A stretch of 64,000 nucleotides of DNA from Paraspadella gotoi (GCA_051294375.1 CM119266.1:17230087-17294086); one strand, 5' to 3'. Counted from the first letter of the stretch, positions 3,933 to 46,500 are shown. The notes: a model not told the origin generated them from the sequence alone. Made by a program: numbers and translations.

Positions 3933-6742
3933 ATGAAAAGAAATTGCTTTGTGGTCTTCGTCGTCGTTGTTTTTGTCGTCACTATTGCCTCTTTCTTCTT
4001 TCTTGTCGGTCGGGCGGACATGAGCTGGCAAACGAAGGGGACAACCACGACAATGATAACGACGATGAAGACGACGACGACGACGACGACAAAAACGACG
4101 ACAGCGAAAACGACGTCAACCACCAAATTGTCTCCAGTCGAAAGAGAGATTTTCGGGTGATTCAATTTTTTCACCTTCATTGAAACCTTAAACAATGAGC
4201 GTTGCTTTCCCCATTGAACAATTAGCATCGCCCCTTTCCTATTTTGAACTAATCCTCTCTCCAACCAATAAGCAATGTTTTCCCACTAACTGATCAGCAT
4301 CGCCGATTTCCTTCTCTCCAACAAATTAGCATCATCCATTTCCCAATTCTAATCCATCAACATCGCTCTCCCCTCTAACAAATCAAAATCACCCATTTTT
4401 TATCTCCAACTAATCAGCTATGCCGAGCTACTGCCGCCCTTTGCGTCGCTGCGCTTCGGCTGCTCCACCTGCGCCGTGGTTATTCCCTCGGGTCATCTCC
4501 TCGGCGCTGGAGTCGGGAACGAGGTTGACGGACACGAGTGCGTTTTTAGGATCAACGGCGCTCCAGTGGAGGGGTTTGAGTAAGTTATTTGCTCCTGTAA
4601 AAGGGTTCCTGTTTTGGTGAAAGATTTGCTCCAGTGGAGAAGTTGTTTAAGTTATTTGCTTCAGCGGAAATGTTTGGTTGAAATATCTGATCAAGTGGGT
4701 TATTTATTTGCTCCATTGGAGGCGTTTGAGTAAGATATTTGATTCAGTAGTTCAGTAGTTCAATTATTAATTTGGGTTTAAGCAAAAGCTTTGGTCCAGT
4801 CAAGTTCATGATATTGTCAATAGTGGGAGTTTTCATGCAATCTTTTAGTCTTAGCTTTTTTGATGCTCATGTCGAATTTGTTGAATTTGAAATAAAACGC
4901 ATAATTAGTTCCTGTCAAGTTATTGATTTGCTGGTTTCTGTCCCCCAAGGCGGTTTACGGCCGTCCTCACGCTTCCCGCAGGGTCGGTACCATTGGAGAT
5001 CGATCCCGGTACCTGACGGTCATGAGTTGATCTGGTTACGACCGAAGTTGTCATGCTTATAGACGGGCTGAACTTAAAGCAATTGTCAGAATATTAAAGT
5101 ATTATTACAAAATCTCGGTCTTGTATTTTCCAAATAACCGAACGTCGGCCTTCGCCGAATTGTAAACAAATGCTTTTTGGTTTTCGATCGCTTGTAATTC
5201 TTCAGTCGTGATTTTGGCCGAGTAACAATTTGTATTTCTCTCCCGTTTATTTCTTTGGTTTTACCTTATTTAATATAACTATAGTGAATACTCAATCCTC
5301 TATTAATATATTAGGCTAAATAGATTCGTCAATTATTACAGGAGTTAGTAATAAAGACGACACAATGCCCTACTATATTTTTAACCCCATGATTAACGAC
5401 TTTTCCTTTCACCCATACTCACTCAATCTAACGATCCCAACCAACTTATCCCCAACACAGAAAGGACGTTGGTCGACGCACAGACTTTCACGTCATGACC
5501 CATTCATCCGTGAATCTCCTTCCTTCTCTCCATCGACTCAATTCTCTTCCTTCGCCGAGAGCGATTCTCATTTGGGTCGTTGATCATCTGAGGAGGACGA
5601 GGATTAAGACTTTCCAAGGGCTCGTCCACATGTGCCGTCGACTGGAGAGGTACTTTTAAAATTCGCCCAATTTCTATTTCTTGTCACTTAAACTTACGCT
5701 CTTTAGAAAAACATGGCCGAGAGTTTTATGTAAAATTTGATTGATTCATTGATTATCGAATTTTATATTTAATTATAATTAAATTTATAAATCGATAATT
5801 TGATGGATTAATCGGTTGATGGAAAGATTAATAGGTCAAATGATTTATTTGACGATTCATCGATTCAGCATACCATTTATGAATAAATTGATAAATAAAA
5901 TTAAATTCTTAAGTTAACTATGAAACAATTGATTGATGATTGCCCCGTTTTCCAATCAGGACTGCTTGTTTCGGCAGCGACGATCTTCGCGCACAAACAA
6001 TCAGAGACGAATTTTTCTCAGAAACTAATTTGGATCCCGAGACGAAAGTTTGGCTCTCGACTGGATGGACGGCCATTGCAGTCGCTAAAATCGGATGCGT
6101 CAGGTTGTTCCACAACCGCCTATTGGCAAACAGACCTGCCTACTGTCTGACCTCTCTCTCTCTCTCTCTCTCTCTCTCTCTCTCTCTCTCTCAAGTAAAT
6201 TTCAATGAAAAAAAAATATTGCAGATCCTGTATTGTTTGCTTAAACTTATTAACTTCGACTTATGTTTTACAAATCAAGCTAATGTTTTAATGTTTTCCT
6301 TTTCATACCTAATAAGTTACTAAAGTATTTTAAAGAGATTCCTTGGGGGTTTTTGCTCAGTTTCACTAAAGTGTATTAATTCTGATCTCTCTCTCTCTCT
6401 CTCTCTCTCATAATATCTCCAATAATACTCTTCTCTCTCTCTCCTCTCTCCTTCTTCTCTCTCTTTTCTCTCTCTCTCTCTCTCTCTCTCTCTCTCTCTC
6501 TCTCTCTCTCTAGCACAACCATTTACGGCCTGATATCGGACAAGCACTGTCAACTTCATGAGCACAAACACGTTCCTTATCACTACTACGGATCGATGAA
6601 TATCTCCGAGTGTCAGTATCATAAGATGATGGACAGCCTGTCCCATGCAGGTCACAGATTCACGCGTGAACGCAAGGTGATTGGTCGATGGGCGAAGATT
6701 CACAACTTCACATTTCGCGCGCCGAGTTGGGAAGAGGGGTAG
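3933..6742 (+). CDS. ST6GALNAC: Alpha-2,6-sialyltransferase, GT29, ST6GalNAc III-VI-like (5 exons)
   Basis: Exons 3933-4156, 4418-4579, 5461-5649, 5960-6103, 6514-6742, all GT-AG and phase-consistent. N-terminal type II anchor (FVVFVVVVFVVTIASFFFLV) and Thr-rich stem. Sialylmotif L (CSTCAVVIPSGHLLGAGVGNEVDGHECVFRINGAPVEGFEKDVGRRT), motif S (WLSTGWTAIAVAKIGCVSTTIYGL), motif III (VPYHYY), motif VS (HRFTRE), and a C-terminal RWAKIHNFTFRAPSW typical of ST6GalNAc3-6. Confidence 0.9.
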
Positions 6743-43500: not shown

Positions 43501-46500
43501 TTAGATTACTTAAGATTTCGTATCGTGACCTTAACAGGTGCCGGGGCCGACAGCGCGGGCACTGACCCGCGAGATCAAACAAACAGCCAATCGGGAGATC
43601 AAGCAAGCAGCTCATCGGGAGAAAGCGCACAAGATGCTTGCCTCAAGTTTAACTGCAATGAGGGATATTGCAAGATCAAGAATGGAGAGACAATCTGCGA
43701 ATGTAGAGCAGGATGGACTGGCGAGTTTTGTAGCAAACCGGTCTGCACCAATGACTGCAGCAAGAAGGGAGTTTGTGTGGAACCTGGAAAGTGCGTTTGT
43801 AATCCGGGTGAGCGATAGTTGTTTCTATATTTTTGTTTCTGTAATTTTCCAGTAACGTGAATGATTAATTTCTGATTACTCCTTTAAGGCTGGTCAGCTC
43901 TGGATTGCTCCGAGCCAATCTGCTCAGACTCTTGCAACGCTCACGGAAAATGCGTTGGACCCGAACTCTGTCATTGCACGAGAGGCTACAGCGGGGTCTC
44001 TTGCCAAGACCCCGTTTGTCGGTCCAACTGTCATCTGCGTGGGTTTTGCACGGCGCCGGACAAGTGTGAATGCCTAGTAGGTATAATTGTATAATTGTAA
44101 TTTTATATTCTGGAAGAAAATTTTAGATTCATTTCTTTTACTTTTAAGTTAGGTAGTTGTGTTTAAATTATTTAGTTTTGTTTATTTTATTTGCCAGGTT
44201 TTACGGGTCCAGACTGTTCCGTAGAGATTTGTCCCAATAAATGCAGTCAACGCGGTGACTGCGATGAAGTAAAGGGTTGCATATGCAATCCAGGATGGAG
44301 TGGCAATGACTGCTCAGTCAAGATATGTAATCAAGGGTGGGAGGGAAGTGATTGCAAGACTCCAATATGCGACATGGGTTGCTCTAATCATGGAATTTGT
44401 ACCAAGCCTGCTCATTGCGAGTGCGAATCAGGCTGGGGAGGCAACAATTGTTTGGAACCAATCTGCGATTGCAATGGAAGAGGGAAGTGCGATAAAGTAG
44501 GAAACGTGTGCAAATGCGATCAAGGATGGAAGGGAAATGATTGTACGATTCCTGTCTGCGACTGTAACGGAAGAGGGAAATGCAGTCAAAGTGGAAAATG
44601 TGCGTGCGAAGGAATTTGGTATGGGGTCAAATGCGATCAATGGAAATGTCCAAAATTGAAAGGAGTAGAACAAGTCATCCCTAAAGGAAAGGAGATTGAT
44701 CCGAAGAATTGTCGTCCATGTCCTAAAGGATTTCGGCCTTTTTCCAGTGAGATTTAAAAAAAAAATTATTAAATATTTTTGATTTTATAATTTTAATCAC
44801 TTTCTGGTTTATTATATTTGGTTAATGTGCTTTTTTATTTCCTTATTTTTTAACTTGACGTTTCTCAACATTTTTATCCCGGTAACTATTCTCTTTCCTT
44901 TATTCTTTTACCTCTTTTTTTACTTTGTTTTACCTATCATTTTATAGTCTTTTCTTTACAGTTCATATCCTTATTTTTTCCCCCGATTTTTCTTCCCTCT
45001 CTATTTAATCTCTTTTTCTTTCCTACCTCTAGATCAACACGCATGTGTCATCGTTGGCAGCGACAAAATGGAAGAGGCTCATTCGACTCCAGCGGGAAAA
45101 AATCTAGAGTGAGGCAACAACAACAACAACAACGACAAAACCAAAAATAACAACAATCCTTTCCTCCCAATCCAATTTCCCCACAGGATCCAAGGTGGTC
45201 AATGGAATCCCGTCCAAGATTGTCCACACGGATTCGTGGTCCGTGGATTTCGCGTCCGCCTCGATGTGGAGGGATGGAAGGCTGGCTGGGACGATGAGGG
45301 TCTGACTGAGTTTGATTTGTACTGCGTGGCTGGAAGGGAAGAGTCGTCCAAGTCGGTCTTCAGCTATAGGATTAGGTAGAGCGGGATGGAGATCGGTCTC
45401 TTACTGCGTGGCTGGAAGGGAAGAGTAATCCAAGTCGGTCTTCAGCTATAGGAGCAGGTAGAGCAGGATGGAGATCAATCTGTTACTGCGCGGCTGGAAG
45501 CGAAGAGTCATCAAAGTCAGTCTTCAGCTATAGGAGCAGGTAGAGCGGGATGGAGATCAATCTGTTACTGCGCGGCTTGAAGCAAAGAGTCGTCCAAGTC
45601 GGTCTTCAGCTATAGGAGCAGGTATAGCGAGTTGGAGATCGATCTGTTACTGCGCGGCTGGAAGCGAAGAGTCGTCCAAGTCGGTCTTCAGCTATGGGAT
45701 CAGGCAGAGTAGGACTAAGACCAATCAATACTACGTGGATGGAAAGGAAGATTCGTCCAAATAGGTTTTTTGCTACAGCATACGGTACAAGTGTGTGGAT
45801 TTTATGTAGGTTGAGTGGAACATACTGGTGGTTATAATTTCAAATGATGCAACTTCATCCATCATTATGCCACTTAGTTTTAAACAGATTCAACGTCGCG
45901 AGGATAAATACCAACGATACCATCTGAACCTCACATCATTCCATTCAATCAGGTCTGGATGGCGCGAAGACGGTGAAACTTCCCCGCGATTCTGGTGTCC
46001 AGATGGCGAATTTGTCGTTGGCTTTCGTCAACAACTTTTTCAAGGATCAGAAATGGTGAAAAAGAATTGTGAATTATAGGGGAAAGGGAGAATAAGACTA
46101 AGATTAATAATTCGAAAAATGTAATGACATGATTTCTGCATTAACGATGATTTTAAAAATAGAATTCACGAATTTCTTAGAAATGATATTTCCCAGGTTG
46201 GCGTTACCAACGCTGCTGTTTACTGCGCGGATCCAAATTTGATGGAATATAAAGAATCGAATTTGAAGAGAATTGATTCTGGGATGAAGACGACAGCCAG
46301 TGGAGATGCGGTGTGGACAAGGATGGCCATTTGTGGGCCGGGTCAGGTGGGAGAGGGAAAGAGGAAGAGAGAGAAAGATTGAAAAATAGAGAGAGAGAGG
46401 AAAGACGGAGGTAGAAGGAGAGAGAATATAAAAGGGAGAGAGAGAGAGAGAGAGAGAGAGAGAGAGAGAGAGAGAGCAAGAAAAAAGTGAGAGAAAGCAG

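Follow-up and report, generated by a model that had tools for sequence, protein, structure and literature searches.

Why do the ends of several exons, together with the splice sites that close them, recur head to tail in the adjoining introns of one short stretch of animal DNA? The stretch comprises 64,000 nucleotides (nt) of Paraspadella gotoi (GCA_051294375.1 CM119266.1:17230087-17294086) and is referred to below as the window. A reading of the sequence alone had noted such copies in a sialyltransferase gene, a membrane protein gene, HNF4, a gene labelled LPMO and a VWA gene, and had proposed a very active local tandem duplication, possibly targeted to splice junctions, for which no named class of element was known to it. 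Copies at exon ends fixed by homology or RNA were found in the sialyltransferase gene, HNF4 and the VWA gene. The LPMO label was not reproduced, the family having no match in any scanned open reading frame (ORF) translation of the window.

The class does have a name. Tandem duplications of exon-intron boundaries were described as 'mirages' in the amphioxus genes BflGb6 and BflGb9 by Ebner et al. 2010 (PMC3087553), and further mirages in PGBD5 and troponin C by Pavelitz et al. 2013 (PMC3902484). The arrays in the window are further examples of this repeat class. We consider it probable that they are mirage-type minisatellites arising as by-products of a high rate of local tandem duplication, likely harmless and not aimed at exon borders.

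Gene models and the HNF4 arrays

Three genes (sialyltransferase, VWA-EGF-VOMI and HNF4) were modelled with independent support. Splice junctions were placed by hand using frame continuity; a generic acceptor matrix, which missed most real acceptors, was dropped, and the donor matrix is our own approximation, for descriptive use only. HNF4 lies on the minus strand, where tblastn with ten HNF4 proteins recovered eight conserved exons between 47654 and 21060; these form an open spliced frame. RNA evidence is taken from the run X7 (labelled 'RNA?'), in which one spliced HNF4 contig is present. This 2,680-nt contig (depth 42.7) is a spliced HNF4 transcript and contains four minus-strand GT..AG joints, namely 21796>21877 (80 nt), 21431>21656 (224 nt), 20651>21059 (407 nt) and 20349>20459 (109 nt), with a further continuation mapping to 19358-19387.

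The HNF4 mirage (20845-21084, minus strand) is an array of eight 30-nt units, all exactly in register, as determined by Tandem Repeats Finder (TRF), a unit table, tblastn and the transcript contig. Unit 0 joins the final 25 nt of exon 21060-21194 (LLQEMLLGG) to the donor GTGAG, the junction being 21060|21059. Units 1-7 occupy 214 nt, half of the 408-nt intron 20652-21059, and are identical to unit 0 at 23, 22, 23, 25, 23, 26 and 26 of 30 positions. At joint 20651>21059 the exon-proximal donor is used and the entire array is skipped in the one assembled transcript contig; since the transcript is spliced at the first donor, units 1-7 are intron. The earlier proposal of an active tandem duplication with products that survive in introns is supported; its alternative, targeting to junctions, is not (see below). 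All eight units are intact in DNA contigs of three samples from two studies (X2, 20611-21276, and X5, 20777-21257, each with 0 differences; X6, 20611-21236, with 1), and no insertion or deletion is listed for the contigs of X2, X5 and X6 over 20000-22100.

Two further HNF4 introns begin with or consist of short repeats. An array of 3.4 copies of 21 nt (20184-20254, minus strand; TRF, 96% matches) starts at the donor GT of exon 20256-20349 and has no exon sequence inside; the donor is RNA-supported by the transcript piece 20255-20349 and its continuation at 19358-19387. The 80-nt intron 21797-21876 (minus strand, transcript joint 21796>21877) is made up almost entirely of ATTG-type units of 8-12 nt (TRF 21808-21873), which echo the exon end GATTGCTAG|GT with an echo score of 21, matched by 1 of 300 shuffles. 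Just before its donor, exon 21657-21796 has about 12 residues more than other HNF4 proteins, and the transcript contig confirms the junction.

The HNF4 gene extends over at least 27 kb and hosts other genes within its introns. Intron 41087-47020 contains the VWA-EGF-VOMI gene (41581-46346, plus strand), and intron 22014-38466 contains two long frames of C2H2 zinc fingers (24689-26710 and 27570-29147); a protein search with the 674-amino-acid zinc-finger ORF gave no close relative. A separate second nuclear-receptor gene near 47 kb was considered and rejected, as tblastn identified this region as the DNA-binding part of HNF4. In a single-gene tree, the HNF4 of the window is sister to Branchiostoma with a support of 89/87 (not starred; moderate) and an identity of 82%; the best identities to Branchiostoma proteins in the database are 72-82%. 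By this single gene, the DNA would probably belong to a cephalochordate, or at least to a deuterostome, other than the Branchiostoma species of the protein database. The segment 39339-40672 in an HNF4 intron, with a summed X2 contig depth of about 1.4 million compared to a few hundred in most other bins, is a mobile element or a repeat of very high copy number. Runs of (GA)n begin at, or up to about 20 nt from, the three HNF4 donors 47020, 21333 and 38466 (GTGAGAGAG...; GTGAG.../GTAAG...). Runs of (TC)n extend up to, or to about 10 nt short of, two acceptors (41087 and 6513), and the one at 6513 ends at the acceptor itself.

Predicted HNF4 proteins of five Timema species (P0001, P0002, P0016, P0031 and P0040) contain 13-residue tandem units EYYNTLEEILLGG directly after LLQEMLLGG. 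By species these number about two dozen, about fifteen, three and, in the last two, two before the model ends. The Timema residues GGEYY appear to match the read-through of a G|GTGAGTAT donor, and the gene predictor has probably read through a minisatellite that spans the donor. If this is true, the same HNF4 junction independently became a mirage in an insect and was translated by gene predictors.

The sialyltransferase and VWA-EGF-VOMI arrays

The sialyltransferase gene (plus strand) has four exons, 4418-4579, 5461-5649, 5960-6103 and 6514-6741, which are supported by Pfam GT29, tblastn and an open spliced frame. The GT29 match reaches the end of the first frame (exon 4418-4579), and tblastn with homologues matched 4419-4577 and then 5456-5656, the alignment leaving off at residue 189 before the intron 4580-5460 and resuming at residue 189 after it. 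The donor mirage of the first exon (4556-4757, plus strand), found by repeat search, comprises seven degenerate copies of a 21-nt core at a spacing of 21-37 nt (mostly about 31 nt), the first of which lies across the donor GA|GTAAGT (4579|4580). Degenerate copies are also present on the acceptor side of the same exon, in the upstream intron (4206-4419, plus strand; four copies of 35 nt and three of 19 nt). The last 19-nt copy (4401-4419) covers the acceptor AG at 4416-4417, giving a weak, junction-spanning echo with a score of 21.

The VWA-EGF-VOMI gene (41581-46346, plus strand) has 11 exons joined in one open spliced frame, and the Pfam matches to VWA, EGF and VOMI fall on its exon frames. 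Its mirage at the VOMI exon (45320-45790, plus strand) consists of 4.8 copies of 82 nt (45320-45709; TRF 90% matches, score 612) and one more diverged copy. The unit is composed of 56 nt from the end of exon 45187-45375 and 26 nt of intron, and each unit contains AG|GTAGAG; the junction 45375|45376 is based on the Pfam VOMI match and the open frame over the 11 exons. Intron 45376-45952 is 577 nt long, and the array supplies about 334 nt of it. The identity of the four full copies after unit 0 to that unit declines (74, 72, 71 and 67 of 82), so that the decay with distance from the exon, which the sequence-only reading had ascribed to the arrays, applies here but not to HNF4 (23 to 26 of 30). 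A contig of X7 (45033-45574) covers the first three 82-nt units with 0 differences, and none of the short-read contigs listed spans the whole array. A protein search with the VOMI exon gave no relatives at longer lengths.

Two smaller repeats adjoin other donors of this gene. A 10-nt tandem pair, GGGTGAGTTA / GGGTGAGGGA (42880-42905, plus strand), lies at the donor of the VWA exon 42768-42887 and has an echo score of 23, which 1 of 300 shuffles matched. The intron following the EGF exon 43889-44080 begins with GTATAATT GTATAATT GTAATTTT (44081-44104, plus strand); these repeats hold no exon part, the intron start itself being reiterated, and the junction is taken from the open spliced frame. 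Among the joints listed for contigs over 30001-50000 there were no usable intron joints for the VWA gene or the genes at 36 kb, those listed being repeat-driven.

Repeat background and tests for junction enrichment

To score echoes, a probe of 35 nt (25 nt of exon and 10 nt of intron) was aligned to the next 400 nt, with 300 shuffles per site. The three strong donors had echo scores of 45-55 versus a shuffle mean of 15-17 and a shuffle maximum of 23-26 (sialyltransferase donor 45 vs. 23, VOMI donor 55 vs. 26). As 0 of 300 shuffles reached the observed scores, a chance origin of the three strong arrays was rejected.

Tandem repeats are frequent in the window as a whole, which is AT-rich animal DNA with a G+C content of 26-43% per 2 kb. 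Over the entire window, 389 rows of Tandem Repeats Finder have a score ≥ 30, and our own TRF run gave 241 rows with a score ≥ 40. The share of the window taken up by merged arrays of period ≥ 12 (n = 87) is 10.5% and that of arrays of period ≤ 6 is 7.4%; tandem arrays of all periods cover 17.9% of the non-exonic DNA. The claim of a very active local tandem duplication is thus borne out. In the 19 short introns of the modelled genes the repeat cover is 18.1%, the same as in non-exonic DNA overall. Coding frames also hold in-frame tandem duplications (TRF): a zinc-finger frame has 105 nt x 2 at 25375-25587 and 231 nt x 2 at 26170-26640, and an EGF exon has 24 nt x 2.2 at 43571-43622. The duplication process therefore acts in exons, too.

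For the enrichment tests, the junction set consisted of the 50 junctions (24 donors, 26 acceptors) of the three gene models, which had been chosen for showing echoes. Controls were 18,000 positions on both strands, with 15,546 probes outside known exons. A strong echo was defined as a junction-spanning score ≥ 40, which was reached by 4.2% of the 15,546 control probes; for probes within the three genes' short introns the rate was 7.3%, and for those within known exons 5.3%. Against the 4.2%, strong echoes were not significantly enriched at donors (3/24, P = 0.077), at acceptors (0/26) or at all junctions (3/50, P = 0.35). With a score ≥ 21, the figures were 6/24 donors (P = 0.11), 1/26 acceptors and 7/50 junctions overall (P = 0.57) versus 14.1% of the controls, again without significance. 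Arrays of period ≥ 12 touched the first three intron nt at 3/24 donors and 0/25 acceptors, compared to 10.3% of control positions, and an array of any period was found within 10 nt of 8/24 donors (P = 0.089) and 3/25 acceptors, compared to 20% of controls. Arrays of period ≤ 6 were present within 10 nt of 5/24 donors versus 9.3% of control positions (P = 0.066). A duplication targeted to junctions, as considered by the sequence-only reading, is not supported by any significant excess over control positions; neither was any significant enrichment seen at junctions relative to intron interiors within the window, in this small sample ascertained for echoes.

Proposed origin of the arrays

We infer the mutational mechanism, the neutrality of the copies and a selective filter as follows. 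Local tandem duplication would act everywhere, probably by replication slippage or unequal exchange in a repeat-rich genome, and segments that include the end of an exon along with its 5' splice site (or, rarely, a 3' site) would be copied head to tail. A donor-spanning duplication would not alter the mRNA, since splicing would take the upstream donor, and the copies would drift afterwards. The filter would purge most exonic duplications unless they are in frame, tolerate donor-spanning duplications and tolerate acceptor-spanning ones less often. A duplicated acceptor would form a competing site upstream of the real one, which may account for the rarer acceptor cases. By-products would be longer introns and rows of silent decoy donors, whose copies likely persist because splicing keeps the exon-proximal site, as in the HNF4 transcript contig.

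Several observations weigh against this explanation. A donor-side excess of 2-3-fold is present in every measure, although it is never significant and is inflated, since the three genes were picked for showing echoes. About 616 of the 1,026 repeat-covered nt of the 19 short introns sit in three donor-anchored arrays. The sample of junctions is small (50 junctions from three genes chosen for echoes), and the RNA evidence is a single assembled contig covering HNF4 only, a type of data in which rare isoforms are dropped. Strong donors are kept in HNF4 copies, unit 3 reaching 12.0 compared to 12.2 for the real site with the approximate matrix, and the frame is open through HNF4 units 1-5. An array also follows LLQEMLLGG in the predicted Timema proteins, a hint that this particular site may be prone to duplication.

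Alternative explanations

In the 19 short introns, about 60% of the DNA in tandem repeats is attached to donors, which could also be read as a sign that donor-anchored duplication is the main route of short-intron growth in this lineage, with sequence hot spots. In Timema stick insects the corresponding HNF4 exon end would then have turned independently into a minisatellite of variable copy number. We regard this as possible, though rather unlikely; it would imply a real but modest 2-3-fold duplication bias toward 5' splice sites.

A process targeted to or seeded at junctions, in which the splice consensus or damage coupled to transcription or splicing raises the local rate, is unlikely. It would agree with the 2-3-fold donor excess in all measures, the (GA)n near donors 47020, 21333 and 38466, the (TC)n ending at acceptor 6513, the period ≤ 6 arrays near 5/24 donors, and the array after the same HNF4 junction in predicted Timema proteins. 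However, P < 0.05 was obtained in no measure, acceptors have no excess (0/26 strong echoes, 0/25 touched by arrays of period ≥ 12), the three genes were selected for echoes, and intergenic and exonic DNA are equally array-dense.

It is quite unlikely that some introns were born by duplication, as in the Rogers model, in which an exonic AG|GT segment is duplicated and becomes an intron with direct-repeat ends. Intron creation by duplication of an AG|GT-bearing segment was reportedly the subject of Zhuo et al. 2007 in PNAS. A candidate in the window is a putative 142-nt intron at 36574-36715, with junctions taken from frame continuity alone and in a gene for which no close relative was found, in a region of 24-nt and 12-nt units (GGTCYRAACC...; 36550-36736, plus strand) which occupy both of its flanks. 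The putative donor AAG|GTCTAAACC resembles the acceptor flank CAG|GTCCGAACC (motif AG|GTCYRAACC), and the interior is built from the same units as the flanks; the segment would thus fit the pattern of an intron born by tandem duplication. HNF4 intron 21797-21876, almost all of it an echo of the exon end, points in the same direction, and intron gain by duplication has been proposed for amphioxus globins by Ebner et al. (PMC3087553) and for Drosophila by Lehmann et al. (PMC2891723). Against this, the 36574/36715 junctions are putative, and in the sialyltransferase and VOMI cases the array lengthens a pre-existing intron. Many HNF4 protein matches end after LLQEMLLGG, so this junction appears to be shared with other animals and the HNF4 intron would predate its array.

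It is very unlikely that the arrays are functional, either as decoy or alternative donors that tune splicing or as in-frame peptide units, which in HNF4 would add 10-residue steps after helix 12. The HNF4 unit of 30 nt is indeed in frame, units 1-5 are free of stop codons, and unit 3 retains GAG|GTAAGT; likewise, VOMI copies 1-3 (CAG|GTAGAG) outscore the real TAG|GTAGAG with the approximate matrix. Yet the GT is lost in HNF4 units 4 and 5, units 6 and 7 hold stops (the only units to do so), and the first donor is the one used in the only transcript contig. The 82-nt VOMI unit is out of frame and has a stop in copy 1, and in human F7 identical downstream donors are silent (PMC1557585).

An assembly artefact, i.e. 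repeats collapsed or expanded by the assembler, was rejected as highly improbable: there are two N runs in the window and no short-read contig listed spans the whole 82-nt array, but the 30-nt and 21-nt arrays of HNF4 lie inside contigs of three other samples with 0-1 differences, and the X7 contig 45033-45574 has the first three 82-nt units with 0 differences.

Other putative sites and features of the window

Further junction copies had been claimed at several sites. The units at 20184-20254, at 4206-4419 (weak) and at 36550-36736 are real, whereas the supposed donor at 36851-36916 is doubtful. There, repeat search and TRF detected a 33-nt unit present twice with 97% identity and containing ATG|GTGAGT (plus strand); the open frame reads GGT GAG TGA, so the supposed donor may be a stop codon. 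At 7482-7607 (no strand assigned), TRF found a (TCAA)n run and a flanking 22-nt direct repeat next to a putative junction of a putative gene, and there was no Pfam match among the flanking ORFs. The claimed HNF4 site at 16640-16672 was read by eye as sequence, and its junction is putative.

A near-perfect palindrome is formed by 48144-50798 and 51154-53702. Its arms of about 2.65 kb show a blockwise complementarity of 91-100%, and the spacer between them, about 355 nt long, is made of microsatellite. N runs are located at the end of one arm (53704-53728) and inside the other (49446-49455). The palindrome at 48144-53702 may be real or a scaffolding artefact.

Significance and comparison with known systems

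The window has three strong and several weak mirages in three genes within 64 kb, and single arrays can form half or more of an intron. Elsewhere, mirages have been described in a small number of amphioxus genes and of human loci, and Canestro et al. 2002 in Nucleic Acids Research (NAR) are said to have reported one in amphioxus Adh3. A genome-wide count of mirages was not found in the literature searched, and in the same literature the term 'mirage' occurred with amphioxus or lancelet in the papers of Ebner and Pavelitz only (subscription papers were outside the coverage in both cases). The result corrects the idea of an unnamed, junction-targeted element. It is relevant for annotation, as predictors can read through in-frame echoes, which the Timema HNF4 models appear to do, and it has implications for how intron size evolves and for models of how 5' splice sites are chosen.

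In amphioxus, mirage units of 10-160 bp are reported, both boundaries are hit, splicing is undisturbed and a role in intron gain was proposed; earlier cases in Adh3 and other genes are cited in the same paper (Ebner et al.; PMC3087553). Like the amphioxus mirages, the arrays of the window are built of units some tens of bp long in head-to-tail order; one unit lies across the boundary with its AG/GT signal, and the copies are intronic. Regular splicing would be kept in the window as well, to judge by the one HNF4 transcript contig, and 5' and 3' boundaries can both be hit. In contrast to amphioxus, the window is donor-dominated, with 3 strong donors versus 0 acceptors. Amphioxus mirages are also reported to be unstable, whereas in the HNF4 array of the window no length polymorphism was seen among three DNA samples.

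The Rogers model resembles the situation in the window in that a duplicated AG|GT segment supplies splice sites and intron sequence, a pattern which the putative intron 36574-36715 would fit, and intron gain by tandem duplication was discussed for Drosophila by Lehmann et al. 2010 (PMC2891723). It differs in that the three strong arrays lengthen existing introns and create none.

The 37-bp variable number tandem repeat (VNTR) in intron 7 of human F7 (Borensztajn et al. 2006; PMC1557585) is similar, too: among its identical donors, the one farthest upstream is chosen. Its first element lies across the exon-intron boundary, so that the authentic donor is followed by silent, identical pseudo-donors, and it provides a tested reason for tolerance, namely upstream-site selection (PMC1557585). 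The difference is one of scope and method: F7 is one human locus analyzed by mutagenesis, whereas the window holds several loci in 64 kb, known from sequence analysis alone.

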